Numbered from the stretch's first letter, positions 7,694-36,249 are shown. The stretch is DNA of 64,000 bases from Gammaproteobacteria bacterium (GCA_965220815.1 OZ244846.1:1987620-2051619); one strand, 5' to 3'. A program made the numbers and translations. Notes: generated from the sequence alone by a model not told the origin.

Positions 7694-7710
7694 AAACATG
7701 GCGGTAGTTT

Positions 7711-20264: not shown

Positions 20265-20361
20265 GAACTTACCGGAGAATCATCAATCATAGCTGTATGC
20301 CCAATAGCGGCGGGTTATGTTATGATGATCGCAAAAATAACAGGTAAAGGGGATAGAGAAT

Positions 20362-20832: not shown

Positions 20833-21707
20833 TGAAAATGAAAAGGTACTTTTTGGCGTGCTTGCTGTTGTTGAACGGCGCGCCCGCCATGGCGATTGAT
20901 GTCGAAGAAATGACCGTGTTGAAGGTATGCGCCGACCCGTACATGCTGCCTTTTTCCAATCTCAAGGAACAGGGTTTTGAGAACAGGATAGCTGAATTGT
21001 TCGCCGAGAAACTGGGTGTGGAACTGCAGTATGAGTTTTTTCCCCAGAGGATCGGGTTCATCCGCAATACCCTCAGGGCGGAATCCGAATCAGGTACCGG
21101 GTACAAGTGCGACCTGGTGATGAGCGCGCCGGTCAATTTCGAACGGGCTGCGGCTACAAATCCTTATTACACGTCTTCCTATGCCCTGGTATTGGCAAAG
21201 GGGCGGGGGATGGATGATGTGACATCGCCCGAAATGCTGGTCGATAAGGTAAAAAACGGCGGCCTGAAAATAAAGTTCGGCGTGACCGATCGCGGGCAGG
21301 ACCAGTTCTGGGTCTTCAGACACGGACTGATGAGGAGTATAGTGCCGTACCAGGGACAGCCCGGCGACCCCGAGGAGTATCCGGGCAAAACCCTGACCGA
21401 GGATTTGATTTCAGGGAAAATCGATGCGGCGATCATCTGGGGACCTATCATAGGCTATTTTTCCAGGACCATGGAAGGCGGCGAGGATCTCATCATCCTG
21501 CCGTTGGGCGATGACCCTACGACACCCTACCTGAAATTTTCATTCACCGTGGCCATGGCGGTCAGGCACGGGGAACAGGAATGGAGAGACAAGGTAAATC
21601 AACTCATCGCCGAAAACCAGGCGGAGATGAACGCCATCATGGAGAGCTACGGAGTGCCCTTGCTGCCCATAGAAAAAATCGAAATAAGAGATGATGACGA
21701 CGACTGA
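20832..21707 (+). CDS. xoxJ: quinoprotein dehydrogenase-associated periplasmic binding protein (MxaJ/XoxJ family)
   Basis: Signal peptide. LKVCADPYMLPFSN matches the MxaJ signature. SBP type-3 fold size (291 aa). TAATG overlap with the cupredoxin gene. Confidence 0.8.
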   Translation: MKMKRYFLACLLLLNGAPAMAIDVEEMTVLKVCADPYMLPFSNLKEQGFENRIAELFAEKLGVELQYEFFPQRIGFIRNTLRAESESGTGYKCDLVMSAPVNFERAAATNPYYTSSYALVLAKGRGMDDVTSPEMLVDKVKNGGLKIKFGVTDRGQDQFWVFRHGLMRSIVPYQGQPGDPEEYPGKTLTEDLISGKIDAAIIWGPIIGYFSRTMEGGEDLIILPLGDDPTTPYLKFSFTVAMAVRHGEQEWRDKVNQLIAENQAEMNAIMESYGVPLLPIEKIEIRDDDDD

Positions 21708-21711: not shown

Positions 21712-21880
21712 TATCCGCAGATGACGCAGATAAACGCAGATAATATTAATGTTGCAGTGCAAATTGTGTAGCACTTGTTTATACAACGAAGAATCTGAAA
21801 TGTTTGCAGACTTGAGAATACATCCTGAAGAAAAGGAAACACATAAAAACATCTGCGCTAATCTGCGTCATCTGCGGATA
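21712..21880. mobile_element. MITE-like inverted-repeat element B (169 bp)
   Basis: TA|TCCGCAGATGACGCAGATAAACGCAGAT ... ATCTGCGCTAATCTGCGTCATCTGCGGA|TA. Starts 4 nt after the xoxJ stop. Confidence 0.7.
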
Positions 21881-22618
21881 ATTTTATGCGTTCTATGGCT
21901 GTTTTCAGCGCCGCCGGCTTTCGCTGAGGAAGCGGATGAAGACGTAGAAGTAAAAGGGGCCACCATCGGCAGGATGGGCGACCCCGCAGTGGTTGACCCG
22001 AACACCTACGAGTTTGCCGACGCGGAGGTAAAACTCTGGATGGATAATCACCTCAGGAACATCGACAGCCCCGGGCGGCTCTATTATGATTTCGTCAAGC
22101 GCGGCAGTTACGAGGAAGGATTCAGTGACTCGGTATTCCTGGATATCCTCAAGGTTAATGAGGATGGCAGTAAGGACGCCGACCTGGAATTTTTCACCGC
22201 GGACAGGCAACAGGATGCCCGGCGTGATAACCTGGTCGGCATAACGGGTAACCCGGTGCTGGTTGTATACATGCAGGGTGATGTCTACGAGATGAACCGC
22301 CTTACCAACGGTAGCTGGCGTTATTTCCAGAGGCGTATCAAGTCGGCATTTGCCGAGAACGCGAAAATAGAGCCGGTTACATTCGAGTATGACGGCGCTG
22401 AGATGACAGGGGAAAAGATTTCCATCACCCCGTATGTCAACGATCCCAGGCGCAGACAGTTCGCCGCGTTCGCTCCAAAGCTTTACGAGTTTATATTATC
22501 CGACCAGGTGCCGGGGAAACTGTACCAGATCAAGACAGTCATACCGGCCGGTTCACCGGACGGTGAACCGTTGATGGAAGAGATCCTGACCCTGCAAAAC
22601 GCAGAATTCGCGAACTGA
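21797..22618 (+). CDS. hypothetical periplasmic protein whose 5' end is encoded inside MITE B
   Basis: Downstream of the MITE, ILCVLWLFSAPPAFA|EE reads as the signal h-region and cleavage site. The only in-frame start codons (21749, 21797) lie inside the MITE. The body is D/E-rich with no recognised domain. Confidence 0.4.
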   Translation, partial: EMFADLRIHPEEKETHKNICANLRHLRIILCVLWLFSAPPAFAEEADEDVEVKGATIGRMGDPAVVDPNTYEFADAEVKLWMDNHLRNIDSPGRLYYDFVKRGSYEEGFSDSVFLDILKVNEDGSKDADLEFFTADRQQDARRDNLVGITGNPVLVVYMQGDVYEMNRLTNGSWRYFQRRIKSAFAENAKIEPVTFEYDGAEMTGEKISITPYVNDPRRRQFAAFAPKLYEFILSDQVPGKLYQIKTVIPAGSPDGEPLMEEILTLQNAEFAN

Positions 22619-22628
22619 GGTTTCCGCC

Positions 22629-23447
22629 TCAGCCCCTGTTCAGCAGCACCATGACCTCGCCCTTGCCGTCGTTGGCGAGATCGCCGGTGTACAGGCGCAC
22701 TTCCGGACCGAAGTTGCGAAAAAACCGGTAACGGCTTCCCATCCGGGACAGTTGCTTGAAAAACAGGCGCAGGTATTCCATCTTCAGCGCGCCGCAATTT
22801 GCCAGGGTGGTTCCGATACGGTCCGGCCGCCTGCCCAGGATGATGGTCCCGCGTTTCATTCCGTAGCCCGGGAGTCTGCCGGATTTGCCCAGGATCAATA
22901 TCGTGCCGGCAACCATGCCGGAACCGCTGAAATCGCCCGCATCGCCCCCGATCATGATCATGCCGCGCCGCATCCTGTCGCCGATTCGGTTCCCGGCATT
23001 GCCCCATACCGTTATCAGCCCGTCACGCATCCCGTACGCGCCGGTGTGTGTCCCGGCCCCGATGTAATCGCCGGCGTCGCCTTCCACGTCGATCCTGCCC
23101 CACTCCATGTCGCAACCCAGCCAGTCGCTGCAACTGCCGCTGACCTTTATTGTGCCGCCTTTCATGCCATGGCCGAGGTAACTGCCGCCGTGGGCCTTGA
23201 CGCTGATATGGCCGCGGGTCATCTGCGCGCCAATCCGGGTTACCAGTTCTGTAGTGCGGCGCAATTCGATGTGCTCATGGTTCTCCCCACTGATGGAAAA
23301 CAGCTCTCCGAGTCTGGTTGGTCTGGAACCGTAATCCAGTTTCAGATCGGTAATCTGTTGCACAGCCGACAACCTGTCCGGTGTCAATGATGACAAATCC
23401 AGTCGCCATCGCGGCTTTTTCTTCAGGGTGAAAATCATGGGCTTCAC
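22629..23447 (-). CDS. fhcC: formyltransferase/hydrolase complex subunit C (FwdC-like beta-helix), set 1
   Basis: Repeated GxxxGxG[ML]xxGxI beta-helix units typical of FwdC/GltB C-domain. GTG start; 4-nt overlap with upstream ftr. Confidence 0.85.
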   Translation of the reverse strand: MKPMIFTLKKKPRWRLDLSSLTPDRLSAVQQITDLKLDYGSRPTRLGELFSISGENHEHIELRRTTELVTRIGAQMTRGHISVKAHGGSYLGHGMKGGTIKVSGSCSDWLGCDMEWGRIDVEGDAGDYIGAGTHTGAYGMRDGLITVWGNAGNRIGDRMRRGMIMIGGDAGDFSGSGMVAGTILILGKSGRLPGYGMKRGTIILGRRPDRIGTTLANCGALKMEYLRLFFKQLSRMGSRYRFFRNFGPEVRLYTGDLANDGKGEVMVLLNRG

Positions 23448-24340
23448 TGTAATATGTCCCTGAGGTGGAAGTGATACTGCCCCAGTTTCCCGCCATAGTT
23501 TCCCGCACTGATTCGGTAGATGCCCTTGTCGGGCCCGTTTTTGCAGACAGCCTCGACCCCGGCGCGCATGGCTTCGCTTATCGCAGTTTCATTTAAACCA
23601 TCGATGACAATTTCCAGGACGGAACCGACCTCTTCGGTAAGCGTGCTGTTTACCCGGCCTTTCAGGGTGGGGCAGAATACTTCGTTGGTGGAGGCCGGTA
23701 AAAATGAATATTTGGACCCTACCTTGGAGCCGGACCCGACAATGCCGCCCGGGAACGTAGTGACCGCGCCTTCTACCGCCCTGATTGCTTTTACCGCTTT
23801 TTCACAGGCGTTCAGGCCGTGGCGGGATGTCTTTGCCATTACCAGGAAGTTGCCGCCGCCGATGGCGGGGACCACGCCGGTAGTCTCCTCGCACAGGAAT
23901 TCGCCGTGCATGACCGGGATGCGCCAGTAGCGGATTCCGTCCAGTATCTTTGATATCTGGTAACCGTCGCCGAAATACCTCAGGCTTTTTCCCAGGGGCA
24001 GCATGGTATCGCTGTGGGTCCCGGCAAAACAGGCGCTGGTTGCGGTGGTCATCACGGATTGGCCGACGCGCCGGGTGAGCTGGTCCGCGAGTTGGGATTT
24101 GGACATGGCGAACATGATGATCGCCACACCGGGCCTGCCGTCCGGGGTTTCATCGGGTCCCAGTTCCCGTTCTATGTCGGCCTCACAACCGCAGGCTATC
24201 ACGGAAGAGGCGAACCCGGTCAGTGAGTTGGCCGCGATGTATGCGTACTTCATGGTCATCGCGGTGATGATCAACCGGGTCGCCTTCATGGGGAAGGCCT
24301 CGGCAAAGGTATCGTCGATGGTTACGCCGTTGATATTCAT
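23444..24340 (-). CDS. fhcD: formylmethanofuran:tetrahydromethanopterin N-formyltransferase (Ftr/FhcD), set 1
   Basis: 298 aa. Ftr family similarity, and paralogous to 30169..31056 (about 50% identity by eye). Confidence 0.85.
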   Translation of the reverse strand: MNINGVTIDDTFAEAFPMKATRLIITAMTMKYAYIAANSLTGFASSVIACGCEADIERELGPDETPDGRPGVAIIMFAMSKSQLADQLTRRVGQSVMTTATSACFAGTHSDTMLPLGKSLRYFGDGYQISKILDGIRYWRIPVMHGEFLCEETTGVVPAIGGGNFLVMAKTSRHGLNACEKAVKAIRAVEGAVTTFPGGIVGSGSKVGSKYSFLPASTNEVFCPTLKGRVNSTLTEEVGSVLEIVIDGLNETAISEAMRAGVEAVCKNGPDKGIYRISAGNYGGKLGQYHFHLRDILQ

Positions 24341-24350
24341 GTTTATTCTA

Positions 24351-24606
24351 TATCCACAGATGACACAGATGAACGCAGATGATTTATTGTTTATTTATCC
24401 ACAGATTACACAGATTACACAGATATTTTCAGGTGTTATTTGTGTGCGTCTCCGGTTATCATTCCCGCGCAAGCAGGGACTCAACAGATAAATTCTTCCG
24501 TTTCAAAAAAAGTTTTTTACCTGCCATGTGTTTACATTCGTGATGTTAAGCAGAAGGATATGAAATCATTTCAATCATCTGTGTTAATCTGTGTAATCTG
24601 TGGATA
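24351..24606. mobile_element. MITE-like element inside the fhc operon (256 bp, two left ends and one right end)
   Basis: TA|TCCACAGATGACACAGATGAACGCAGAT, then a second TTATCCACAGATTACACAGATTACACAGAT at 24394, then the right end CATCTGTGTTAATCTGTGTAATCTGTGGA|TA at 24577-24606. The fhcA stop codon (24584-24586) lies inside the right end. Confidence 0.7.
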
Positions 24607-26260
24607 AGTCCCGTTTGCAGTCATGCACCAGCAGAGAATGCTGGTTGTAGCCTTCAAGTTCGTCCCGGCTGATTTTGAAATTCTCAAGGCTCATGGTCAT
24701 GTACCTGTCGAAGTAGCGTTTAAGGGGTTTCTCTATTCCCGGGTCGTATTCCGGTTCGACCACGTGGGTGGAGGTAGCCGGGATGGCGCAGACCTTGCCG
24801 TTCCTGACGCAGGGTTCGCCGCGCTTGAATACGTATTCCGGTTTGCCGAACATGGTCTCGAGGTTGTCGTCGGGCGTGTACACGGTGATATCCGCTATTG
24901 CCCCGATGCCGAGGTGGCCCAGGTCCCGGAGGCCCAGGCTCCGTGCCGGCGCGGCGCGGGTGATGATCGCTATCTCGTATAACGAGTATTCCCGGTCGAG
25001 TGAGGACAGGACGCTGGCGCCTGCTGCGTCCCTGTTTATCGCGCCCAGCATGTCGTTGCGGAAACTCCTGTCCATGAGCAGCCTGATCAGGTGCGGGTAA
25101 AAGGTAAACGGCGCGCCGTTGGGATGGTCGGTGGTCATGAACACGCGCCAGGGATCATTCACGAGCAGGAATATTTCCAGGCCGATGCACCACTGCAAGG
25201 CGTTGACAAAATTTTTGTCCCGGTAACGGAACGGCACCACGCCGCAGCCTGCATCGCATTCGATATCCATGCATACCCATTTTTTCGGGTTGGCATGAAC
25301 ATGTCCCCTGTGTTGCATCATGGTATCGGCGGAGGCGGTGACCGTCTGGCCGAACATGACCTGGCCTACGTCAATGGACAGGTTCGGGTTCAGGTTTACC
25401 GCCTCTGCCAACTGTGCCGCCGCGGATGAGAATTTCCTGTCCCCTTCCTGCCCGTAACTGTGGAACTGTACGTGGGTCAGGTGCATGGGTCTCCCCTCGG
25501 CCGAAGCTATGGTGTCGAGGGTCGTCCGGTAATTGCCCGGCACCCCCAGGTTGCAGGCATGGACGTGCAGCGGGTGGGGAACGCCGATGGCCTCCAGCGC
25601 ATCGAGCAGGGCGGACAGGATGGCGCGCGGCGTTAATCCGTAATATTTGTTGGATTCATCCAGGTCCAGCTTTCTCTGGTTGAACTTGAACGCGTTGATG
25701 CCTCCGGGGTTGACTACCTTGACGCCCATGGCCCGTGTTGCCTGTATGGTCCACGCCACGTAATCGTTGACAAGTTGCGAGTCCCTGTTGCGTTGTAGCA
25801 GGCGTAACAGGAAATCATCATTTCCGAGCAGGACATAAGCGCCGGTATCCAGCATGGGAGTATCGGCCATCTCCAGGTGCGACTGGCGTGCATTCACCGG
25901 CATCATGGCCGGTTCGAAACAGGAGGTATAACCCATTTCGGCATAGCGGTATCCGGTAACGAAACTGCTTGGCGCGATGCTGCCTGAACCGGAGCGCATC
26001 AGCATGTCGGGAGCAACGGGGTTGCCGGCGTGGTCCTCAGCCAGCAACATCCTGGCGATACTGACCTTGCCTCCGCCGATATGGGTGTGGATATCGATAC
26101 CGCCCGGCATGACGACGCGCCCGGCCAGGTCCAGTACCCGGTCAATCCTGCCTGCAGTCGCCGGATCGGCCAGCCTGCCGTCCTCGATATACAGGTCCAT
26201 AACCTTGCCGTCTATCCCGTTCGCCGGGTCGTAAACCTTTCCGCCTTCGAGCTTGATCAT
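24584..26260 (-). CDS. fhcA: formylmethanofuran dehydrogenase subunit A homolog (amidohydrolase), set 1
   Basis: 558 aa. Metal-dependent amidohydrolase motifs (PGGIDIHTHIGGGK ...HVHAC...). Paralogous to 31053..32690. The last 7 codons are encoded by the MITE terminal repeat. Confidence 0.85.
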   Translation of the reverse strand: MIKLEGGKVYDPANGIDGKVMDLYIEDGRLADPATAGRIDRVLDLAGRVVMPGGIDIHTHIGGGKVSIARMLLAEDHAGNPVAPDMLMRSGSGSIAPSSFVTGYRYAEMGYTSCFEPAMMPVNARQSHLEMADTPMLDTGAYVLLGNDDFLLRLLQRNRDSQLVNDYVAWTIQATRAMGVKVVNPGGINAFKFNQRKLDLDESNKYYGLTPRAILSALLDALEAIGVPHPLHVHACNLGVPGNYRTTLDTIASAEGRPMHLTHVQFHSYGQEGDRKFSSAAAQLAEAVNLNPNLSIDVGQVMFGQTVTASADTMMQHRGHVHANPKKWVCMDIECDAGCGVVPFRYRDKNFVNALQWCIGLEIFLLVNDPWRVFMTTDHPNGAPFTFYPHLIRLLMDRSFRNDMLGAINRDAAGASVLSSLDREYSLYEIAIITRAAPARSLGLRDLGHLGIGAIADITVYTPDDNLETMFGKPEYVFKRGEPCVRNGKVCAIPATSTHVVEPEYDPGIEKPLKRYFDRYMTMSLENFKISRDELEGYNQHSLLVHDCKRDLSTDYTD

Positions 26261-27492
26261 GCCGCGCTGCCGGTTATATGTGACAGGACCTGGCCGATGA
26301 CGGTAGCGGCACTGGGGGCGCCCGATTCCCTCAGCTTTTTCAAAGGCAGGCTTATGACGCCGTCCGTCCTGAACAGGGTGCCGGCATGGTCTATGCCGGG
26401 AACGCCCGTGGGAATGTAAACGTCTGCATCACTCGTCCCGGCACTGTACGGAGACAGGATGATCACAGGTACGTCCAGGTCCGGGGGCATTTCTTCGGCA
26501 AACCCCGATATCCACAACAGGCTGTCCACGTCCGCCGGGTGTACGCCGGCGCCGGAAGGACGCCCGCCGTTGAAATCGACTGCAGCCGGGAAGCCGGTCT
26601 GCCAGGTGGCTACGCTCTGCCAGGATGCGCCGCCGTTGCTGCCGCCCAGGGATAAACCGGCAAAACGCTGCCTCGCGTTAAGGTCGCGCAACAGGTCCTG
26701 CGCCGAACTGATGACGAAGTCGGCCTGATCCTGGGGCAGGGCTGCGGGGCTCCATACCAGTACGCCGTATTGCGCGTCCCTGATCATGCCGGCAACCTGT
26801 TTCAGTTTACGGGTTTTTGACGCCGGTATTTTTCTGAAATCCGGCAGTTGCCGGTCGGCCAGCAGGGCGCGCAGCAGCGCGAAGTTGTCGGCGATTTCAT
26901 CACCCTGGCCGGAAAGGACCGCAGGCTCATGGTGGTCGCAGCCGGCCAATTCGGTCCTGCCCGGCCTGCCCAGGTAAGCCAGCTTCTTGTGTTGCCCCGC
27001 GAACAATGAATGGGGCGTGTTGATGAATCGCTCGATAAACCGGGGATAATTGCCGCAGACATTATTGCCGATAAAGATGACGACGTCCGCACGGTTCTTT
27101 ACCTCCGCCAGGGTGGCCGTGATCCCGCCGCGTGCCTGCAACGCTTTCAGGTTATGCAGGGACTGGTTTTCCTGCGAATGCAACAGCGCCGCATCCGTCT
27201 TTTCGGCCAGTTGCAGGGCTGCGCGCAGGCCGTTAACGTCTGTGCCGAGGCCGGCGATCAATGGTTTGCGGGACTTGCGCAGGAGTTTTGCCGCAGCGCT
27301 TAAGGCTTGTCCCACAGTTGCAGGAGCGCCCCTGACAGAGGCTTCCGATGCCGGGGGCGGGGCGGAAAAGCCCTGCCTGGCAAGCCGGCAGGCATTGGCG
27401 GAGACGCTGAGTTGATTCTTCTGTGCGCGAAGCGTCAGGTCATCGCATAACAGGCTGCAGAACGGACAGGTGACGTTATCAATCGACGCCAT
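26257..27492 (-). CDS. fhcB: formylmethanofuran dehydrogenase subunit B homolog lacking the metal-ligand Cys (Fhc type), set 1
   Basis: Start at MASIDNVTCPFCSLLCDD, an N-terminal Cys cluster. At the position aligned to CHGPS of the paralog it reads SLHNL. The track ORF extends 96 codons further upstream as R/G/Q-rich junk overlapping fprA. Confidence 0.8.
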   Translation of the reverse strand: MASIDNVTCPFCSLLCDDLTLRAQKNQLSVSANACRLARQGFSAPPPASEASVRGAPATVGQALSAAAKLLRKSRKPLIAGLGTDVNGLRAALQLAEKTDAALLHSQENQSLHNLKALQARGGITATLAEVKNRADVVIFIGNNVCGNYPRFIERFINTPHSLFAGQHKKLAYLGRPGRTELAGCDHHEPAVLSGQGDEIADNFALLRALLADRQLPDFRKIPASKTRKLKQVAGMIRDAQYGVLVWSPAALPQDQADFVISSAQDLLRDLNARQRFAGLSLGGSNGGASWQSVATWQTGFPAAVDFNGGRPSGAGVHPADVDSLLWISGFAEEMPPDLDVPVIILSPYSAGTSDADVYIPTGVPGIDHAGTLFRTDGVISLPLKKLRESGAPSAATVIGQVLSHITGSAA

Positions 27493-28865
27493 CAATCCAG
27501 CAGGGCCAGCATTTCGCTGACGTAAGTGAATTTCTCCCTGGGTTTGTCCACAGGTTCGCCGCGCGCGATCTCGGCGGCATCGATTATTTTCCAGTCTGCG
27601 AAACTGATATGGCGTATGTTGCGCCGGTCCAGGACCTCGTAACAGCCCTCGGCGCCGCGCTTGTTTTCCCCATTTTGCAGATTGTCCAGATTGTCCAGGT
27701 CTTCCAGCAACATCCGCACGGTTTCCACGCTGTCCGCCTTGTTGGTGCCGATGATGCCGGTGGGACCGCGCTTGATCCATCCGGCGGTATACAATCCCCG
27801 TTCAACCGTACCGTCCTTCATGACCCTGCCTTTATCATTGGAAAAGACCCCGCGGGCTTCATCAAACGGCACCCCGGGCATGGGTATGCCGTGGTAGCCG
27901 ATACTGCGAAAGACGATACCCGTGTCGAGAGTGAATGTTTCTCCGCTGCCCCTGGCCGATTGCCGGAACGATTCTCCCGACAGGGAGTTTTTTTCTATCA
28001 GCAGGCTTTCCACCCGGCCGTCGCCGAGTATTTCCCTGGGACTCTTCAGGAAGGTGAAAATACAGCGCCTGTCCCCCCCCGCCTCACGGTCGGCAAATCC
28101 GCAGAACAGGTCATAGATTTTTTTGTTGCCGGTATTTTCCAGTTCAGCTTCACTTTCCGGGTTCAACAACAGTTCGCCCGCATCGATGACCGGGTCGCAG
28201 TCGGCCAGCGCGCCGAATTCCTTCAATTCCTTGGAGGTGAACTTGGCCTGCGCCGGCCCGCGCCGGCCGATAACGTAGATGTTTTTGATTTTACTGGTCG
28301 CAAGTACATCCAGGGCATGTTCGGATATGTCGGTGTGTTTCAATTCATCAACAGTCTTGGCCAGTATCCGGCTCACGTCGGCAGCCACGTTGCCCTGGCC
28401 GATAATGACGGCGGTTTCATGGGACAGGTCGAATTGCCTGTCGCGATAATCGGGATGGCCGTTATACCAGCCGACAAATTCCGTTGCCGTGTAGCTGCCG
28501 GACAGGTCCTCACCAGGGATGCCCAGGCGGCGGTCGGTTTCGGCGCCGCAGGTGAGGATCACGGCATGATGGTTTGCCCGCAATTCGTCAATGCTGATGT
28601 CCCTGCCCGCAGCCACGTTGCCGATGTAATTGAACTGTTCCGCCTCGGCAAGCCTGGCATAGACCTTGATAGCCTGTTTCAGTTTTGGATGGTCGGGCGC
28701 AACGCCGCTTCTTACCAGGCCGTAAGGTACGGGCAGGCGCTCGAACATATTGACCCTGAATTCGATGCCCGCCTTGATGAGCGCGTCTACGGCGTAGAAG
28801 CCGCTGGGGCCGCTGCCTACGACGGCGACTGTCAGGGGATTATCCGGGGTTCCTAATCGACTCAT
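27492..28865 (-). CDS. fprA: NADPH:ferredoxin (adrenodoxin-type) oxidoreductase, FprA family
   Basis: VAVVGSGPSGFYA FAD site at the N-terminus. WIKRGPTGIIGTNKAD and overall colinearity with M. tuberculosis FprA, from memory. Its stop overlaps the fhcB start. Confidence 0.8.
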   Translation of the reverse strand: MSRLGTPDNPLTVAVVGSGPSGFYAVDALIKAGIEFRVNMFERLPVPYGLVRSGVAPDHPKLKQAIKVYARLAEAEQFNYIGNVAAGRDISIDELRANHHAVILTCGAETDRRLGIPGEDLSGSYTATEFVGWYNGHPDYRDRQFDLSHETAVIIGQGNVAADVSRILAKTVDELKHTDISEHALDVLATSKIKNIYVIGRRGPAQAKFTSKELKEFGALADCDPVIDAGELLLNPESEAELENTGNKKIYDLFCGFADREAGGDRRCIFTFLKSPREILGDGRVESLLIEKNSLSGESFRQSARGSGETFTLDTGIVFRSIGYHGIPMPGVPFDEARGVFSNDKGRVMKDGTVERGLYTAGWIKRGPTGIIGTNKADSVETVRMLLEDLDNLDNLQNGENKRGAEGCYEVLDRRNIRHISFADWKIIDAAEIARGEPVDKPREKFTYVSEMLALLD

Positions 28866-28998
28866 GATTCACACAGTTGGTAAAAGAAGAGAAACGTATC
28901 CCGAACACCCTACGCCGCGCGGTCAGGGTTCGTTCAGGGTTGAATGGGGGAACCCCGATCAAATCGAGGTTCCCCGGTTAAAAAATACAGGGTGCCGG

Positions 28999-29304
28999 CT
29001 AGAAACCCAGGGCCGCTTTCTTTTCGTCCGCGCCGGGCAACGGATCCATGGTATCGGTGATGACCGGCAGTTCCTTGGACCTCTCAGCGTTGATTTCTAT
29101 CCACTCATACTTGTCTTCGGGCAGGTCATCTTCCTCGTAGATGGCTTCAACAGGACATTCCGGCAGGCACGCACTGCAGTCGATGCAGACTTCCGGGTCG
29201 ATATACAGCATCTGATCGTCGTAGTGGAAGCATTCCACCGGGCACACTGCGACACAGTCGGTATAGCGGCAGTCTTTACAGTTGTCGGTTACGATTGTTG
29301 TCAT
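28999..29304 (-). CDS. fdxA: 7Fe ferredoxin ([3Fe-4S][4Fe-4S], FdxA type)
   Basis: CKDCRYTDCVAVCPVECF ... CIDCSACLPECP in the Azotobacter ferredoxin I pattern. Strong SD AGGAGAA. Confidence 0.85.
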   Translation of the reverse strand: MTTIVTDNCKDCRYTDCVAVCPVECFHYDDQMLYIDPEVCIDCSACLPECPVEAIYEEDDLPEDKYEWIEINAERSKELPVITDTMDPLPGADEKKAALGF

Positions 29305-29346
29305 GATGTTCTCCTGTATAAGCTCTTCTGCGGGATATTACCCCAT

Positions 29347-30156
29347 CTATCCTGCATATAATAATATTTCTCCCCGGTTCAACTCAACACTGTCCCCGCA
29401 ATAGCGTTTATACGAGCCCTGCAGGTATTCTTCAGCAATTGCGAATACCCGGGACAGGTGCAATAAATAAAGTGTCATGTAACCCGGCCGGTAGGTGCAG
29501 GAATAGCTGAACGTGGGCAGTAACGGAGCGTCTTTCATGCTGACGATGGATCCCCGCTTCATCCCTGCCCCGGTGCGGATGCCGAGTTCTCCCAGGACGA
29601 ATATGCTGCCGGACAACATGTTGACGCCGGTAAAGTCACCGCTGTTGCCGCCCACAGCGATCAGCCCGCCACGGATGGCGTTGCCGGTCTCGTTGCGCAC
29701 GTTGCCGTGAATGATGATTTCCCCTCCTGTCATGCCCACGGATGCTCCCCGATAGGCGCTGCCGACAAGGTGGCCTGCATTACCGTGAATTTCGATTTTC
29801 CCCCCCGACATCTCCGGTCCGACCCAGTCGGTGGCATTGCCGTTGACTCGGATTTCCCCTCCGCTCATGCCGGCGCCCAGGTGTTCGCCCACGTCGCCTT
29901 CAACCCGGATTGTTCCCCGGGACATGCCGGCGCCGATGAATTTCACCCGCCCCAGGTCATCACCCTGCAGGTCGATGACCCCGTCATAGCAGCCCGTAAC
30001 GCTGAAGAAGTCCCCGATGGATCGGGACTCGCTGCCGTGCATGACCGTCAGTCTTTCCACGTCAGCCGCGCCCTGGCCGGTGAGCCGGTCAGGCGTGACG
30101 TTATCGGCCTCCATGGGCACGTCCGGCGCGGCAATCTGTCTCAGTAATAAAGGCAT
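29347..30156 (-). CDS. fwdC: formylmethanofuran dehydrogenase subunit C, set 2
   Basis: 269 aa with the same GxxGxxG beta-helix repeats as fhcC. Confidence 0.8.
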   Translation of the reverse strand: MPLLLRQIAAPDVPMEADNVTPDRLTGQGAADVERLTVMHGSESRSIGDFFSVTGCYDGVIDLQGDDLGRVKFIGAGMSRGTIRVEGDVGEHLGAGMSGGEIRVNGNATDWVGPEMSGGKIEIHGNAGHLVGSAYRGASVGMTGGEIIIHGNVRNETGNAIRGGLIAVGGNSGDFTGVNMLSGSIFVLGELGIRTGAGMKRGSIVSMKDAPLLPTFSYSCTYRPGYMTLYLLHLSRVFAIAEEYLQGSYKRYCGDSVELNRGEILLYAG

Positions 30157-30168
30157 ATCATTGTGCTG

Positions 30169-31056
30169 TCAACCGAGGTTGAGATCGTGCAGGTTGATTT
30201 TGTACTGTCCGAGGTTCCCCCCGTAATTACCCGCGGAGACCTGCCTGATCCCGGGTTTTGCGGCGGCCTGTATGCCCGCGGCCATGGCCTGCCTGACCGC
30301 GTCCTCAGTAAGGCCGTCGATCACTATTTCCAGCACGCAGTTGACATCCGCCGGCAGGCTGCTTTCGGTGACCGACTTCAACGTTGGACAATAGGCGTCG
30401 TTGGTGGATGCGGGCAGGGCCTTGTAACGTGAGCCCACCTTGCTGCCGCTGCGCACGACGCCGTTGGGGAACGGCAGGATAATATCCCTGATGGTTCCCA
30501 TGGCCCGGGTTGCGGCGCCTGCCGCGGCCAGGGTTTTCTTCTCGTTGGTGCCCAGTATGATGATATTGCCGCCTCCCACTGCTTCCCGTACGGAAAACGA
30601 TTCTTCCACGGTAAATTCACCGTCCATGACCGGGATGCGCCAGAAGCGGCGCTCCGCCAGTTTCTTGCTGCCCTGGAAACCGTCGCCGAAATAGCGCAGT
30701 TGTGAACCTACCTGTACTGTCTCCTCACCATCCAGGCCGTTGAAACAGGCCGTTGTCGGGCAAGTCATGACGCATTGGCCGATGCGTTCCAGCAGGCGCT
30801 TTCCCACCGATGCCTTGTCCATGGCGAACAGCAGGATGCTGGCGCCCGGACGGCGATCCGGCGTCTCGTCCGGAGACAGGAATCTCTCGATGCCGGCCTC
30901 GCACTTGCAGCCGATAACCGATGTGGCAAAGCCCGTCATCGATTGCGCCGCTGCCTGGCTCCATTGCCTGGTTGCCGCGGTGACGATTACCCGCGCGCCC
31001 CACATGCCGAATGCTTCGGCAAAGGTATCGACGATCTCCGTGGACTTTATCTTCAT
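30169..31056 (-). CDS. ftr: formylmethanofuran:tetrahydromethanopterin N-formyltransferase, set 2
   Basis: 295 aa Ftr-family paralog of 23444..24340. Confidence 0.85.
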   Translation of the reverse strand: MKIKSTEIVDTFAEAFGMWGARVIVTAATRQWSQAAAQSMTGFATSVIGCKCEAGIERFLSPDETPDRRPGASILLFAMDKASVGKRLLERIGQCVMTCPTTACFNGLDGEETVQVGSQLRYFGDGFQGSKKLAERRFWRIPVMDGEFTVEESFSVREAVGGGNIIILGTNEKKTLAAAGAATRAMGTIRDIILPFPNGVVRSGSKVGSRYKALPASTNDAYCPTLKSVTESSLPADVNCVLEIVIDGLTEDAVRQAMAAGIQAAAKPGIRQVSAGNYGGNLGQYKINLHDLNLG

Positions 31057-32690
31057 ACCGTGTCGATCACTTCGTGGTCGTGCAGGTAGCTGTCATCGAC
31101 TGCATAATTGGGGAACTCGATGGAATAGTAGTTCTCGAAAAACGGTCTTATCTCGGTGACGATGGTCTCGTCATAACCGGGTTCCGTATGCAGGAGTTTC
31201 CCGTAGTAATCCCGGCGGAACTCGTGGTTCTCGATGATGAGGGCGCCGGACTTGATCACGTAGCGCGGTGCGTTGAACATGGCCTCCTTGTCGGCCATGT
31301 CATCGTAGATGGTGATGTCGGCATCGGCGCCCGGACCAAGGTGGCCCTTGTTGCTGAGGTTCAGGGCGCGGGCCGGACCGGCGCGGGTAATAATGGCTAT
31401 CTCATTGAGCGTATATTCACGCTTCAATTCATTCAGTATGGTGTTGTTGATGGCCTTCTGGTTGACGCGTTTGATCTCCTCCCTGCGAAATTCCCGGTCC
31501 ATCAGCAGTCGGATCAGCTTCGGGTAGCTCATAAAGGAACCGCCATTGGGGTGATCGGTGGACAGCACGATGCGCCAGGGATCTTTTGACAGCAGGAACA
31601 GTTCCAGGCCGATGGCCCACTGCAGGGCGTGGACATAGACGTGTTCCTGGTAATTGAACGGCACGATACCGCAACCGCTTTCACACTCCGTATCGGCGTT
31701 TACCCACTTCCCTTTCTTGAATCCCCTGAGCATGTAGGCCAGCGGCGCGTCCGCGGTCATGATCGTCGATTTGCCGAACATGACCTGGCCTACGTCACAG
31801 GTGATGTTGGGATGGTCATTGACGTACTCGGCAATTTCCCGGGATGCCGATTTGGGATTCTTGCCGAGTTCCCCCGCGTAGCTGTGAAACTGAATATGGG
31901 CCAGGTGCGCGCGCCGGTCACCGGCGGTTTTCATGGTCTCCAGGGTGGTCTGGAAGTTGCCGCTATGGCCCAGGTTGTTGCAATGGATATGGGGCGGGTG
32001 TGGCAGGCCCAGTTCATTGACCGTTTCCACAAAGGCATCGATCACCTGCCGCGGCGACACCTCGATGAAGTCGCTTTTCTCATCGATGTCCTTGACGTTG
32101 GAATTCTTCTTGCCCTTCCAGGGTTCATCTCCGCCCGGGTTGACCAGCTTGGTCGTATAAGCCTTGGTTGCGTTGATCCACCAGGCGACGGCCTGGCGGA
32201 ATTCCTCCTTGCGCCCGTCCTTGATCAACTGCTGCAGGAAGATATTATTGCCCAGCAGCACGTAAAACCCCTTGTCGATGACCGGCGTATCATGAAGTTC
32301 TTCAATGGTATGCCGGGCGCCGATTGGGGTGACGGCCGCCTCCATGGCGGTGGTGTAGCCCAGGGTGGCATAACGGTACCCCGTGGCAAAGGTGGAAGGA
32401 ACGGTGCCGCCCGCGCCTGAGCGGGTGTGTTCCGTGCCCGGATGCGGGTCGCGGCGATGGTCTTCAGGTTGCAGTTTCCTGGCCAGGTTTACCTTGGGGC
32501 CGGCAATGTGGCAGTGGATATCCACGCCGCCGGGCATGACCACCATACCGCTAACGTCAATTTTTCGGGGATTGGGGGAGGGTGTTTCCACCATGCGTCC
32601 CTGCTCCACGTAGAGGTCTCTTACTTCCCCGTCGATACCATTGGCCGGGTCATAAACCTTGCCCCCTGCAAGTTGAATGCACTCCGTCAT
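31053..32690 (-). CDS. fwdA: formylmethanofuran dehydrogenase subunit A, set 2
   Basis: 545 aa amidohydrolase paralog (PGGVDIHCHIAGPK). Confidence 0.85.
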   Translation of the reverse strand: MTECIQLAGGKVYDPANGIDGEVRDLYVEQGRMVETPSPNPRKIDVSGMVVMPGGVDIHCHIAGPKVNLARKLQPEDHRRDPHPGTEHTRSGAGGTVPSTFATGYRYATLGYTTAMEAAVTPIGARHTIEELHDTPVIDKGFYVLLGNNIFLQQLIKDGRKEEFRQAVAWWINATKAYTTKLVNPGGDEPWKGKKNSNVKDIDEKSDFIEVSPRQVIDAFVETVNELGLPHPPHIHCNNLGHSGNFQTTLETMKTAGDRRAHLAHIQFHSYAGELGKNPKSASREIAEYVNDHPNITCDVGQVMFGKSTIMTADAPLAYMLRGFKKGKWVNADTECESGCGIVPFNYQEHVYVHALQWAIGLELFLLSKDPWRIVLSTDHPNGGSFMSYPKLIRLLMDREFRREEIKRVNQKAINNTILNELKREYTLNEIAIITRAGPARALNLSNKGHLGPGADADITIYDDMADKEAMFNAPRYVIKSGALIIENHEFRRDYYGKLLHTEPGYDETIVTEIRPFFENYYSIEFPNYAVDDSYLHDHEVIDTV

Positions 32691-32725
32691 ATTATTATCT
32701 GAATTCCGTAATCAGCCCGCGTATC

Positions 32726-34090
32726 TTACTGCAGGGGCGCGGCTGCTCGGCTTACGCCGGTCGCTCCTCGGGCCTGGCCTCTGGCCAGGACCAGTTCGCG
32801 CACGCGTTTTCTGATCGCAGTCAGTATTTCCTCGTCGTTGGGGAAGGGTGAATCGAAGGCCTTGCGCAAGGTGATCGGCACGTCGTCCATCCGGTATACG
32901 GTGCCTGCGGTGTTGATGCCGTAGGTGGAAGTCCGGAATGCCACGTGCGCCAGCTTGCTGGTGAGGGTTGCCTTGGTGTCCAGGCAGACGACCGGGATGT
33001 TTGCCAGGTGGTCGATAGCCGCCTGGGGGAAATTGGATGCGGGGTCGGTGGCGACGATCAGGGCGGCATCGACGTCCCGCTTCGCCAGCAGGTCCACGGT
33101 TGTGAACTCGCCCGGGTTGAAACGGGGGAAGCCGCGGCTGAAATTGACGCCGAAAGGATAGCCGGTCTGCCAGGACATGACATTGTCGGCGCCCGTGACG
33201 TTACCGTGGCCCCGTACCGGTTTGGCGACGAAATGGGTGTATTCATTCAGGTCCGTGGCCAGGGCGAGCAGGGCGCCCGAATTGAAATGCCGGCCGCGGG
33301 TCATGGTCAGGCCCATGCCGAAAAACAACACGCCGTAGCGGCAGTTTTTCATCCGCTCCACCAGTTCCTCCATGGTTTCCAGGCTGACCCCGGTCTCTTC
33401 TTCGATATCCGGGTCAATCCTGCGGTTTTTGACCAGCGCCCGCAGGGCCCATAACACTTCAAAGTCCTTGCCCGGTTTTACCTGGATAAACTGGCTGGCT
33501 GCCGGCGCGCTGGGGGTTCTGCGCACGTCCACCAGGACCACGTGCCGATCTTTTTTGCCCCTGGGGGTAAACATCCCCTTGGCGGTGACCGCATAGCGGC
33601 CGAAGTGGCGCGGGTGGGACTCGGCAGGATTACCGCCCCAGTAGATGACCAGGTCGGCGCGGTTTTTGACTTCACCCAGGGTCATGGTGCTTTCCCCGAC
33701 TCCCTGGAGAGCTATGCCGGACGGGCCGTGACAGACCGACGTGGTGGTGTCGATATTGCCCCTGATGGTGTCGGTAATGGCGACGGCCTGGCGCTGCGCC
33801 TCACAGGTCGTGTCGCTGAGGCCGTAAGTTATCGGGAACCTGGCATTTACCAGTGTTCTCGCGGCTTCCTCCACCGCTTCCTCCATGGAGACAGGCCGGT
33901 TATCTATCATGGCCACCGGCGCGTCCTCTTCGATATAGTGTTCCGCAAACCAGGCTTTGCCGAGTATACAGGCATTCTTCGATTTGGTGATCCGCTTTTC
34001 ATCCATGTCCACGGTCAGGATCATGTCGTCACAGACACAGCCGCAGAATGTGCAGGTGGCATTCTCTACAACTTTTACGTTTTCACTCAT
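32726..34090 (-). CDS. fwdB: formylmethanofuran dehydrogenase subunit B with the metal-ligand Cys retained (molybdo/tungstopterin type), set 2
   Basis: N-terminal CTFCGCVCDD Fe-S motif. Cys120 sits in SVCHGPSG, the Cys/Sec-His position of the formate-dehydrogenase superfamily active site. 454 aa. Confidence 0.8.
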   Translation of the reverse strand: MSENVKVVENATCTFCGCVCDDMILTVDMDEKRITKSKNACILGKAWFAEHYIEEDAPVAMIDNRPVSMEEAVEEAARTLVNARFPITYGLSDTTCEAQRQAVAITDTIRGNIDTTTSVCHGPSGIALQGVGESTMTLGEVKNRADLVIYWGGNPAESHPRHFGRYAVTAKGMFTPRGKKDRHVVLVDVRRTPSAPAASQFIQVKPGKDFEVLWALRALVKNRRIDPDIEEETGVSLETMEELVERMKNCRYGVLFFGMGLTMTRGRHFNSGALLALATDLNEYTHFVAKPVRGHGNVTGADNVMSWQTGYPFGVNFSRGFPRFNPGEFTTVDLLAKRDVDAALIVATDPASNFPQAAIDHLANIPVVCLDTKATLTSKLAHVAFRTSTYGINTAGTVYRMDDVPITLRKAFDSPFPNDEEILTAIRKRVRELVLARGQARGATGVSRAAAPLQ

Positions 34091-34157
34091 GATTAATCCC
34101 CATGGGGTCAGGCCGGCCTTGATATTGCATCCGCTTATGAAATATCAAACAACCATT

Positions 34158-34502
34158 TTAACCAATTTTTTCCACCTCAACAGAAATATGTTTGGACAGG
34201 GGCATGCCGCTGCCGGCAGTATCACTTTCCATCAGCCGGCTGGAGGTGGGCCCATAGGCAATGAAGATCATCCCCTCAGGCAGGTCGGTGGCTTTTTTTG
34301 AGACGCAGGTTACAACGGCTTCCCCGATATGATTTTTCAGGCGCAGCCGGTCGCCGCTGTTGAAACCGAGGCGAACCATCTCGTCCGCATTGATTTCAAC
34401 GGTAGAAGTAACGTCCCGGTACTCGTCACCGAGTTTTCCCTTGTTGAGGGAGGTCCCCTGTTTACTGGACCGCCCAGGTATCAATAACATGGTTTCCGGC
34501 AT
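34158..34502 (-). CDS. fwdD: formylmethanofuran dehydrogenase subunit D (molybdopterin-dinucleotide-binding barrel domain)
   Basis: 114 aa. LGFNSGDRLRLKNHIGEAVVTCVSKKATDLPEGMIFIAYG matches the C-terminal beta-barrel domain of Mo-bisPGD enzymes. It sits directly upstream of fwdB. Confidence 0.7.
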   Translation of the reverse strand: MPETMLLIPGRSSKQGTSLNKGKLGDEYRDVTSTVEINADEMVRLGFNSGDRLRLKNHIGEAVVTCVSKKATDLPEGMIFIAYGPTSSRLMESDTAGSGMPLSKHISVEVEKIG

Positions 34503-34679
34503 ATTTCAGTTCCGCAAATGCGCTGTAAGAATCAGTGAAGAATCCTCCGGCCAGGCCAGAGGAAGTAGGAACAGACAGGGATATATGCCGGCGCCATAAT
34601 CCACATCGGTTCCTGTTTATATCATTTTCCCGCGAAATCGTCAAATCCGCCTCTCCGGCCAAAATAAGCTCAGGAGTTT

Positions 34680-34779
34680 TTACAGGACACCCACGTAAAT
34701 TACAGGACACCCATGTAAATTACAGGACACCCATGCAAATTTTATGGGTGTCCTGTAATTTACATGGGTGTCCTGTAAT
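34680..34779. promoter_or_regulatory. array of five 20-bp repeats (3 direct plus 2 inverted) in the divergent fwdD/mptG promoter region
   Basis: TTACAGGACACCCA[C/T]G[T/C]AAA three times (34680-34739), then TTTTATGGGTGTCCTGTAA and TTTACATGGGTGTCCTGTAA, giving a palindromic overall arrangement. Confidence 0.7.
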
Positions 34780-34790
34780 TTCTCCCTCCC

Positions 34791-34875
34791 CGCAGATAAC
34801 ATCCGCAGATGACGCAGGTTAACGCAGATGTTTTCGGGTAAAATAATCTGCGTTAACCTGCGTCATCTGCGGATA
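34791..34875. mobile_element. minimal MITE-like element C (two terminal repeats with a 14-bp spacer)
   Basis: CGCAGATAACATCCGCAGATGACGCAGGTTAACGCAGATG ttttcgggtaaaat AATCTGCGTTAACCTGCGTCATCTGCGGA|TA. It ends 11 nt before the mptG start. Confidence 0.6.
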
Positions 34876-34885
34876 AAAAATATCT

Positions 34886-35878
34886 GTGCCTTTGAAGACA
34901 CGACAAGACAATACCGCCACTACTGAATCGGTAAGGGTAACCGCCCCGGCGCGCTTGCACCTGGGTTTCCTGGGGCTGGATGGAGCTGACCGGGGGCGGT
35001 TTGGTAGTATTGGTGTGGGTATTACCGGTTTTTCCACGGTGGTATGCGCAGAGCGCAGTGAGCGGGTGGAGATCGATGGGGAGGACGACGGTCATATTGC
35101 CGGCATCACGCGAAACGTACTGGAGCGGTTCCGTATTGATGCCGGGGTCAGGGTGAAGGTTGAGCAGCGTATTCCCCGGCACCAGGGTCTCGGTTCCGGC
35201 ACGCAGATGGCCCTGGCCCTGGGCACTGCCATCACTACCTTGCACGGCGTCCATGCCAGCGTTGAAGACATTGCCCTGGCAACCGGCAGGGGCATGCGTT
35301 CCGGGGTGGGACTGGGCGTGTTCACGCAAGGTGGTTTCATCCTTGACAGCGGCCGGTCGGAAGGACGCAGGTTGCCGACTACAATTTTCCGTCATGACTT
35401 CCCGGAAGAATGGCGGTTTGTGCTGGTCATGGATACGCGGGATGAAGGGATCAGTGGAACGGATGAGGTGGAAGCGTTCAAATCCCTGCCGGACATGTCC
35501 CCGGGAGCTTGTGCGGAAATCTGCCGGCAGGTATTGATGCAGATGTTGCCGGGCATCATGGAAAAGGATTGCGACCGGTTCGGCGCGTCCGTCAGCAGTA
35601 TCCAGTCCAGCATCGGTGAGTATTTCAGCGCTGCCCAGGGGGGCGCCTACGCAAGTGAAAACGTCAGGCAGACACTGGATTTTCTGCTGGAACACAATGC
35701 AACGGGCACAGGCCAGACATCCTGGGGGCCCACCGGTTTTGCCGTTTTTCCGGATGAAAAATCGGCGCGACGGGCCATTGACGCTTTTGCGGGGCGCGAT
35801 GACATGGTAAGTCTCCTGCTTGCCGGGGCGGAAAACAACCGGGCGCGGATCAGCCGGTCGGCAACAGGGGCCGGCTGA
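34886..35878 (+). CDS. mptG: beta-ribofuranosylaminobenzene 5'-phosphate synthase (GHMP-kinase-like, H4MPT biosynthesis)
   Basis: 330 aa. ARLHLGFLGLDGADRGRFGSIGVG N-terminus and a GHMP-like Gly-rich loop (PRHQGLGSGTQ). Context with mch and fae. Confidence 0.6.
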   Translation: MPLKTRQDNTATTESVRVTAPARLHLGFLGLDGADRGRFGSIGVGITGFSTVVCAERSERVEIDGEDDGHIAGITRNVLERFRIDAGVRVKVEQRIPRHQGLGSGTQMALALGTAITTLHGVHASVEDIALATGRGMRSGVGLGVFTQGGFILDSGRSEGRRLPTTIFRHDFPEEWRFVLVMDTRDEGISGTDEVEAFKSLPDMSPGACAEICRQVLMQMLPGIMEKDCDRFGASVSSIQSSIGEYFSAAQGGAYASENVRQTLDFLLEHNATGTGQTSWGPTGFAVFPDEKSARRAIDAFAGRDDMVSLLLAGAENNRARISRSATGAG

Positions 35879-35959
35879 CCTCGTTGACAGGCCAGGGGAC
35901 CTCTGCCTGGGGGCACAATTTCGGGTTTGCAGAGCGCGCGGGTGTGCTATACTGCCTGC

Positions 35960-36199
35960 ATGAAACTCACACAGGAAACCTTTGCCATCCTCGGCGTCGG
36001 AGCTGGTCTGCTGGTCGGGCTGGGTGGCCTGCAAATCAGCTTGCACGGTGATTTGTCCCGGCGCATCGATACCCTGGCTGCCGGGCAGGCGGAGGTGCGT
36101 GAACGACTGGCCCGCGTCGAGACCCACCTTGCGATACCGGCTGCCACCGACGCCGCGCTGGCCGTCACCGTCAAGTCAGGTAGCGCCCCGGATGAGTAG
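35960..36199 (+). CDS. small hypothetical membrane protein
   Basis: MKLTQETFAILGVGAGLLVGLGGL hydrophobic helix. Coding status uncertain. Confidence 0.25.
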   Translation: MKLTQETFAILGVGAGLLVGLGGLQISLHGDLSRRIDTLAAGQAEVRERLARVETHLAIPAATDAALAVTVKSGSAPDE

Positions 36200-36249
36200 C
36201 CGCCCCGACCAGAATAATCACTCTATGTTCGAGCCCGGGATGTAACGAC

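Follow-up and report, generated by a model that had tools for sequence, protein, structure and literature searches.

In methylotrophic bacteria, the formate that the formyltransferase/hydrolase complex (Fhc) sets free is turned into CO2 by formate dehydrogenases. According to the current view of bacterial methylotrophy, Fhc itself only hydrolyses formyl-methanofuran (formyl-MFR) to formate (Hemmann et al. 2019, PMC6926001). Relative to FwdB of the formyl-methanofuran dehydrogenase (Fwd), FhcB of Methylorubrum has lost the catalytic Cys118 (Ser instead), His119 and Arg288, and Fhc also lacks the FwdD cap and the N-terminal [4Fe-4S] domain, the latter being missing from Methylorubrum FhcB altogether (Hemmann et al. 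2019, PMC6926001). A 2016 survey gave fwdD as absent from Proteobacteria (PMC5020050), and the genome paper on Methylococcus capsulatus reports no more than subunits A, B and C and one additional A/ftr pair, which differs from the arrangement described below. Merino et al. (2020, PMC7325909) described a fwdDBA-ftr-fwdC operon in the Hakuba Actinobacteria, which is reported to have a FwdB with the [4Fe-4S] domain and Cys118 and to lack FwdE, FwdF and FwdG, and for which no genes for tetrahydromethanopterin (H4MPT) biosynthesis were found, while an F420-reducing Fwd complex is known from Candidatus Ethanoperedens thermophilum (Lemaire et al. 2024, PMC11493965; PDB 8RJA). The locus considered here lies in a window of 64 kb, that is, the whole analysed stretch of 64,000 nucleotides from a Gammaproteobacteria bacterium (GCA_965220815.1 OZ244846.1:1987620-2051619), in which eleven co-directional minus-strand open reading frames (ORFs) occupy positions 22629-34502. 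A preceding interpretation of this DNA from its sequence alone (the sequence-only reading) had counted twelve genes; the number is eleven, and all ORFs lie where they had been placed, in the minus-strand order fwdD-fwdB-fwdA-ftr-fwdC (set 2), fdx-fprA (a ferredoxin and its reductase, fdx having been listed as fdxA), and fhcB-fhcA-fhcD-fhcC (set 1), with an element resembling a miniature inverted-repeat transposable element (MITE) between fhcA and fhcD. Judging from the encoded proteins, we consider it rather probable that the cluster provides two parallel exits from formyl-H4MPT, a Fwd-ferredoxin-FprA route that would oxidise the formyl group to CO2 with formation of NADPH, and an Fhc route that would release formate.

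The evidence for a redox-active complex lies foremost in FwdB of set 2 (32726-34090, 454 aa), the predicted catalytic subunit with Mo/W-pterin and a [4Fe-4S] cluster. The protein aligns over its full length with FwdB of Methanothermobacter wolfeii (5t5i_B; 427 residues, E 1.3e-111 by HMMER), is equally close to FwdB of Ethanoperedens (E 2.5e-111), and exceeds the curated cut-off of TIGR03129 (1.3e-153). In HMMER and MAFFT alignments alike its SVCHGPS segment falls exactly on the M. wolfeii SVCHGPS bearing Cys118, which bears out the earlier proposal that this Cys occupies the active-site position of the Mo/W bis-pterin; in the alignment to 5t5i_B, MRGH likewise falls on the archaeal VRGH, and CxxCxxxC...C on the cluster motif. 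Among 80 distinct orthologous sequences extracted from 86 related loci, Cys120, His121 and Arg293 (equivalent to M. wolfeii Cys118, His119 and Arg288) are invariant (80/80), as is His295 in 79-80 of the 80, and the cluster cysteines C13, C16, C20 and C41 are kept in 79, the remaining row being a gap. The adjoining fwdD (34158-34502, 114 aa) would supply the cap (fourth) domain of the Mo/W-bis-pterin subunit. Its ORF matches Pfam Molydop_binding (PF01568, 6.7e-08) and NCBIfam FwdD (2.2e-21, under the strict 'exception' cut-off), and its closest relatives in the PDB are FwdD chains (2ki8, 1.8e-16; M. wolfeii 5t5i_D, 4e-13), in agreement with its prior designation as a Molydop-binding barrel. The restriction of FwdD to set 2, also anticipated, is matched in the relatives, where each locus has a single FwdD homologue beside the Fwd set, adjoining fwdB in all but one locus (L079, where it follows fprA). 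In sequence, set 2 thus shows all hallmarks of a functional formyl-methanofuran dehydrogenase of methanogen style and is predicted to be loaded with its cofactor, the metal being W or Mo; the NCBIfam 'tungsten-dependent' models match only under their cut-offs. That set 2 is a decaying duplicate was considered and ruled out, as its catalytic residues are invariant and FwdB is 73-100% identical across genomes.

When set beside M. wolfeii FwdABCDFG (5T5I), the locus has counterparts of FwdB, FwdD, FwdA and FwdC, with the [4Fe-4S] motif, Cys118, His119 and Arg288 of FwdB conserved. However, it has no FwdF or FwdG genes and encodes a soluble 7Fe ferredoxin and FprA instead, its ftr lies inside the operon, the C-terminus of its FwdC appears to form a helix-loop-helix and not a beta-hairpin, and its host is a bacterium with formaldehyde-oxidation genes. 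FwdA of set 2 (31053-32690, 545 aa), the amidohydrolase subunit expected to act on formyl-MFR, scores 700 bits with TIGR03121 against a cut-off of 393 (1e-210) and is closer to archaeal FwdA (469 bits) than to Methylorubrum FhcA (363 bits). By eye, the motifs DIHCH, KLVNPGG, PHIHC, HIQFH and TDHPNG in its translation resemble the HxH, Lys, His, His and Asp ligands of the binuclear-metal site of FwdA/FhcA (ligand types from PMC6926001). The formyl-MFR:H4MPT formyltransferase Ftr (30169-31056, 295 aa; Pfam FTR 5e-62, FTR_C 8e-60) has Methylorubrum FhcD as its best PDB relative (6s6y_D, 320 bits, vs 299 bits for archaeal Ftr). FwdC (29347-30156, 269 aa; TIGR03122 8.5e-73) is a predicted beta-helix scaffold, whose residues 12-266 align by HMMER with residues 8-262 of FhcC (6s6y_C), the C-terminal part being free of gaps. 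Of the four alignments shown to archaeal FwdC, three end at about 206-225, and the other one (9sfi_R) needs gaps to extend to 259. An AlphaFold (AF2) model of FwdC, computed from a 44-sequence alignment with a mean predicted local distance difference test score (pLDDT) of 95.2, has helices at 225-234 and 242-246; in FhcC, a helix-loop-helix at 216-246 docks FhcD, where FwdC has a beta-hairpin (PMC6926001). The Foldseek template-modelling (TM) scores of 0.91 to 6s6y_C and 0.89 to 5t5i_C do not discriminate, and the E-values favour FwdC, so that an Fhc-like C-terminus is supported by the gap-free alignment and by secondary structure at the local level.

By these comparisons set 2 is a mosaic, with FwdB, FwdD and FwdA archaeal-like, and Ftr and, as modelled, the C-terminal helix-loop-helix of FwdC Fhc-like. 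Its classification as methanogen-type therefore stands for the redox site, FwdD and FwdA, but not for the remainder, given the absence of FwdF/G and the Fhc-like character of Ftr and of the FwdC C-terminus. The gene order points the same way, D-B-A-ftr-C being the Fhc order B-A-D-C with fwdD in front. Set 2 accordingly shares with FhcABCD of Methylorubrum extorquens (6S6Y) the embedded ftr and, as modelled, the FhcC-type C-terminus, and differs from it in keeping the complete dehydrogenase site and FwdD. Because Ftr and the FwdC C-terminus are Fhc-like, set 2 may form an Ftr-containing dehydrogenase complex. The gene order of set 2, its FwdB with the [4Fe-4S] motif and the equivalent of Cys118, and the absence of FwdE, FwdF and FwdG agree with what is given for the Hakuba operon. 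Set 2, however, is part of a complete H4MPT island, with fdx-fprA and an Fhc set behind it, neither of which is mentioned for Hakuba in the available portion of the paper.

The ferredoxin encoded downstream of fwdC (28999-29304, 101 aa) is of the Azotobacter FdI type, with 7Fe ([3Fe-4S][4Fe-4S]). It aligns without gaps over residues 4-95 with A. vinelandii FdI (1frk, 1axq; E ~1e-30), with all nine Cys matched, has a DUF3470 (Pfam) C-terminal tail and matches NCBIfam FdxA_Protbact at 2.9e-35, slightly under the cut-off. The product of fprA (27492-28865, 457 aa), an NADPH:ferredoxin (adrenodoxin-type) reductase, aligns with Mycobacterium tuberculosis FprA (1lqt_A, 7.3e-109) over residues 10-454 of its 457 and with adrenodoxin reductase (1cjc_A, 1.9e-98), a homology that takes in the FAD and NADPH dinucleotide-binding folds, and carries the dinucleotide-binding motif GSGPSG at residues 17-22. 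The Pfam, NCBIfam and PDB identities thus fit the ferredoxin and FprA-type reductase that had been recognised between the two sets, and together the two proteins would make a coherent NADP(H)/ferredoxin couple. Full-length homology, GSGPSG and a small Fe-S ferredoxin partner are features shared with the M. tuberculosis FprA/7Fe ferredoxin and mitochondrial adrenodoxin reductase systems; in these, however, the known direction is from NADPH via ferredoxin to a P450 or another acceptor, whereas the reverse is proposed here, and no P450 is encoded nearby.

The distribution of the genes indicates with which set this pair belongs. A scan of a genome collection found a FwdB relative in 198 species-level genomes, and the best 80 of the 198 were retrieved (73-100% identity); these 80 are all metagenome-assembled genomes (MAGs) with no cultured carrier among them, almost all are labelled Gammaproteobacteria (taxonomy being that of the MAG labels), and many derive from sponges, corals, seawater, sediment or groundwater. 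An identical FwdB is encoded on 22 contigs. A protein homologue search returned identities of at least 77% among the 120 listed of more than 6000 matches, which says nothing on spread outside this clade. In a synteny census by tblastn, the full 11-gene order is kept in 40 loci. Among the 56 species-level genome loci with enough downstream flank, a ferredoxin follows fwdC in 55/56 and FprA is present in 54/56, at identities down to 60-64%; of 51 genomes, only 39 have an Fhc set next to the module and 12 do not. In L077 the module stops after fprA and unrelated genes come next, and in L081 fdx and fpr are found together on the upstream side of fwdD. Because the linkage survives both the loss of the adjacent Fhc set and a rearranged order, the ferredoxin/FprA pair travels with the Fwd set and not with Fhc, and the suspected tie between fdx-fprA and Fwd is upheld by synteny. 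In locus L025, where Fhc is not adjacent, fprA is followed (17184-21348) by a NuoE/NuoF-like fusion with 2Fe-2S thioredoxin-like, 51K and 4Fe-4S domains and then by an FdsA-like formate dehydrogenase alpha subunit with the motif CTRLCHASS, and in L072, also without an adjacent Fhc set, an FdsA-like alpha subunit likewise stands after fprA (at about 18456-21287), which points to a predicted NAD-type formate dehydrogenase in place of Fhc at these two loci.

In the pathway that we propose, FwdD-FwdB-FwdA-Ftr-FwdC together with the 7Fe ferredoxin and FprA would constitute one module, in which a formyltransferase/formyl-methanofuran dehydrogenase complex would run oxidatively. Formyl-H4MPT would donate its formyl group, by way of Ftr, to methanofuran or methylofuran, FwdA would hydrolyse formyl-MFR, and the formate would be channelled inside the complex to FwdB/FwdD, at whose Mo- or W-bis-pterin site it would be converted to CO2, with the electrons leaving through the [4Fe-4S] cluster of FwdB to the dedicated 7Fe ferredoxin and from there via FprA to NADP+. 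The net conversion would be formyl-H4MPT to CO2 plus NADPH without free formate, whereas the second module, FhcB-FhcA-FhcD-FhcC, would be an ordinary hydrolytic formyltransferase/hydrolase complex that releases formate. Complex formation by Ftr, the ferredoxin as direct partner, NADP+ as final acceptor and the direction of flux are what we infer. NADP+ has a potential of about -320 mV. For formyl-MFR/CO2, E0' is -530 mV (cited in PMC11493965). With these two values, every step to NADP+ would be downhill. By analogy, the arrangement may be likened to Fwd of Ethanoperedens, in which an oxidative Fwd with an add-on module to a higher-potential acceptor makes CO2 formation strongly exergonic (PMC11493965), although there the F420-reducing subunit is fixed, and a soluble 7Fe ferredoxin with FprA and NADP+ is predicted here. 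Since the host is a bacterium with formaldehyde-oxidation genes, the oxidative direction is the expected one. The opposite flux, that of methanogens, in which NADPH electrons would reach the complex through FprA and ferredoxin and CO2 would be reduced to formyl-MFR and on to formyl-H4MPT, could draw on the reversibility of archaeal Fwd, which is best known for CO2 fixation (PMC6926001), and on the classical use of NADPH by FprA to reduce ferredoxin. We regard it as highly improbable, as NADPH at about -320 mV cannot drive a couple of -530 mV without bifurcation or ion-gradient coupling, and no bifurcating or ion-gradient module is present at the locus. Moreover, the neighbouring functions are formaldehyde oxidation (fae, mch) and alcohol oxidation by pyrroloquinoline quinone (PQQ) dehydrogenases, and the NAD-type formate dehydrogenase genes after fprA in L025 and L072 fit an oxidative island.

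Several observations weigh against oxidation by a Fwd-ferredoxin-FprA chain. Neither a molybdate/tungstate transporter nor moa, moe or mob genes are found in the 64-kb window, and no FwdF/FwdG polyferredoxin gene is found in the cluster or in the 86 related loci. Archaeal Fwd enzymes are O2-sensitive, whereas these bacteria look aerobic, and the [3Fe-4S] cluster of FdI-type ferredoxins passes one electron per transfer. A scan of 22300-35000 for promoters and terminators gave counts close to those in shuffled sequences (8 vs 5.7 and 16 vs 12.9, respectively). Further, fdx is parted from fprA by a 133-nt spacer bearing hairpins, fprA is translationally coupled to fhcB and not to the Fwd genes, and L083 is without fprA. 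The region 28860-29005 (-) folds at -47.5 kcal/mol (z -2.35) and contains two stable hairpins (28900-28975, -), one of which (28947-28975) has a 13-bp GC-rich stem followed by no U tract; among relatives the spacer ranges from about 3 to about 500 nt, and the hairpins may fix the ratio of ferredoxin to reductase by stabilising the transcript or by attenuation. On account of this spacer and of the coupling to fhcB, FprA could serve another process. Set 2 would then still work as a dehydrogenase with a different acceptor, and the ferredoxin and FprA would be inherited neighbours used in NADPH-driven synthesis of the H4MPT or methanofuran cofactors, in Fe-S or stress metabolism, or with a P450-like partner elsewhere. 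The locus without FprA also agrees with such a role, as do the cofactor-biosynthesis genes that adjoin the cluster and the normal flow in mycobacterial FprA/7Fe-ferredoxin pairs, which is from NADPH to ferredoxin. On the other side stand the linkage in 54-55 of 56 genomes, even where FprA identity falls to 60-64%, its persistence where the adjacent Fhc has been lost (L077 and others) or the order rearranged (L081), the lack of any other candidate electron-transfer subunit in the 7-gene module, and the rank of the ferredoxin among the most conserved cluster proteins (median 77%), and we consider it rather unlikely that the pair is not the electron outlet of Fwd.

The second of the two proposed exits, set 1, is paralogous to set 2 gene for gene, as had been noted, with pairwise identities of 27% for the B subunits, 47% for A, 51% for Ftr and 32% for C. 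Its FhcB (26257-27492, 411 aa), for which the true start is the ATG overlapping the fprA stop (the 507-aa ORF as listed being an upstream over-extension), is a pterin-less scaffold by prediction, matching TIGR03129 at 2.6e-68, under the cut-off, with model positions 1-420 covered. At the active site, Cys has given way to Gln, in a column that varies among orthologues, and His and Arg to Ser and Leu, respectively. The segment opposite SVCHGPS reads ENQSLHN; the loss of Cys that the sequence-only reading had deduced is thus correct, but it is Gln that holds the Cys column, and the SLHNL that had been placed there falls on the H-G-P-S-V positions. The N-terminal CxxCxxxC...C motif (C9, C12, C16, C35) is kept in 46-48 of 48 orthologues, although these share only 34-53% identity overall. 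FhcA (24584-26260, 558 aa; TIGR03121 1.7e-222), the predicted formyl-MFR hydrolase, is closer to Methylorubrum FhcA (450 bits) than to archaeal FwdA (399 bits), and FhcD (23444-24340, 298 aa; Pfam FTR and FTR_C), a formyltransferase, is closest to 6s6y_D (332 bits, vs about 300 for archaeal Ftr). FhcC (22629-23447, 272 aa, GTG start) is assigned as the beta-helix scaffold subunit on the basis of its 32% identity to FwdC of set 2 and of a Pfam GXGXG match in the product at the corresponding position in relatives. Set 1 therefore agrees with M. extorquens FhcABCD in the order B-A-D-C, in an FhcB without Cys, His and Arg, in the absence of FwdD and in having FhcA and FhcD closest to the Methylorubrum subunits, and differs from it in that FhcB keeps the four-Cys [4Fe-4S] motif. 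Without Cys, His, Arg and FwdD, set 1 looks like the hydrolytic Fhc complex that it had been taken for.

The co-directional arrangement of the two sets and the overlap of fprA with fhcB would also be compatible with their working in series or as alternatives. In the former case Fhc would free formate and FwdB/FwdD, members of the formate dehydrogenase superfamily, would re-oxidise it; in the latter the sets would be Mo/W-switched isoenzymes, comparable to the metal-dependent isoenzymes Fwd and Fmd carried by methanogens, with Fhc plus a separate formate dehydrogenase as a back-up that is metal-independent in its first step. Set 2 has its own intact FwdA (77%) and Ftr (69%), however, which an enzyme that oxidised free formate alone would not need, and 12 of 51 genomes have no adjacent Fhc set; either version seems distinctly unlikely to us. 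Parallel exits from formyl-H4MPT are also consistent with the degree of constraint on each protein. In 25 divergent genomes, median identities to the window proteins are 78% for FwdB, 77% for FwdA and the ferredoxin, 71% for FhcD, 69% for Ftr, 67% for FwdD, 66% for FhcA, 64% for FprA, 57% for FwdC, 45% for FhcC and 38% for FhcB, with FwdB under the strongest constraint in the cluster and FhcB, its paralogue without pterin, under the weakest, a gradient that fits the pattern expected of catalytic subunits versus scaffolds. A few loci (L029, L061 and L082) carry a FwdB that is 77-78% identical under the labels Planctomycetota, Gemmatimonadota or Ardenticatenaceae; either these contigs were binned wrongly or the module has been transferred laterally.

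Within the cluster the genes are closely packed, with short spacers of 67, 35, 12 and 42 nt, 4-nt overlaps at fwdA/ftr, fhcB/fhcA and fhcD/fhcC, and a single shared nucleotide between the fprA stop and the fhcB start (TGATG), as had been described for the coupling of these two genes. Two gaps are longer, that of 133 nt between fdx and fprA and one of 243 nt between fhcA and fhcD. The latter holds the MITE-like insertion (24351-24607), whose terminal inverted repeats, TTATCCACAGATTACACAGATTA, comprise stretches of 34 nt (91% complementary) and 23 nt (100%). The last codons and the stop of fhcA are provided by this element, which extends into the gene, so that the protein has 558 aa as against 550-551 aa in close relatives without the insertion, and among near-identical relatives the spacer is absent in L003 and about 110 nt long in L001 and L002. 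The repeat motif has six matches in the window where none is expected by chance, and further copies of the element lie at 7507-7694 and 21859-21881. The terminal inverted repeats of this family are built of CACAGAT(T/G)A units, and a partial copy sits in the 5' part of an unannotated ORF at 21749-22618.

Divergently from fwdD, on the plus strand (34886-38730), lie genes of the H4MPT pathway encoding a GHMP-kinase-like protein, Mch, a CitG-like protein and Fae (Pfam GHMP_kinases; MCH 8.5e-123; CitG 4.7e-60; Fae 2.3e-68), and these neighbours recur in the relatives. Downstream of fhcC, at 18196-21707 (+), are genes for a PQQ dehydrogenase (666 aa), a plastocyanin/azurin-type cupredoxin and a periplasmic binding protein (SBP_bac_3), and a second PQQ dehydrogenase (606 aa) is encoded at 2107-3927 (-). 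The region represents an island for formaldehyde oxidation in a bacterium that resembles methylotrophs and is probably aerobic, and the host is an uncultured marine gammaproteobacterium associated with a sponge or coral. The segment at 18196-21707 is arranged in an xoxF/xoxJ-like manner, but the position at which one would expect a cytochrome c partner is taken by a copper protein. Elsewhere in the window, a SoxY-SoxZ fusion is encoded as a single 304-aa ORF at 16853-17767 (-). From 39106 to 63999 (+), an open frame of more than 8298 codons runs off the end of the window and encodes a giant protein with Calx-beta repeats, of which the middle 1500 aa are without a Pfam match. Over most of its length (from about 46 kb) its GC content is 0.67-0.71, vs about 0.57 elsewhere in the window, with a strong A-over-T skew of +0.2 to +0.3, and its antisense frame is open for 5835 codons, presumably as an artefact of composition.

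The components of this locus are known, and what appears to be undescribed is a redox-competent Fwd in Proteobacteria, the Fhc-like way in which it is built, its conserved outlet through ferredoxin and FprA, and its position in tandem with Fhc. In the literature searched, only Hemmann et al. (2019) names both fwdD and fhcD and nothing links Fwd to FprA; no description of a Fwd-ferredoxin-FprA module was found there, although catalogues of bacterial Fwd sets may mention it. Of the co-arrangement, which the sequence-only reading had treated as a candidate undescribed module, the order fwdDBA-ftr-fwdC is one that Merino et al. (2020) already reported for Actinobacteria. If our interpretation is right, bacteria would possess a second terminal route of C1 oxidation, one that yields NADPH and bypasses free formate, and an NADP-linked, formate-free oxidation of formyl-H4MPT to CO2 is not known to have been described for any organism. 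Carriers of the module would then number at least about 50 species-level genomes, with seawater, sediments, groundwater, sponges and corals as their sources. The complex is possibly an O2-tolerant CO2/formyl-MFR catalyst with a simple soluble electron chain, and as such would be of interest for enzymology and for the engineering of C1 pathways. The locus also holds candidate intermediates for the evolutionary path, proposed to have had three steps, by which Fhc of bacteria arose from CO2-fixing Fwd of archaea, namely a putative Ftr-docking Fwd that is still redox-active and a pterin-less Fhc that still has its [4Fe-4S] domain. We tentatively put forward, as a possibility of which we are less than convinced, that many uncultured marine and host-associated Gammaproteobacteria contain a redox-active Ftr-FwdABCD complex, use it, by way of the dedicated 7Fe ferredoxin and FprA, for NADP-linked oxidation without free formate, and have kept in this locus the intermediates between Fwd and Fhc.

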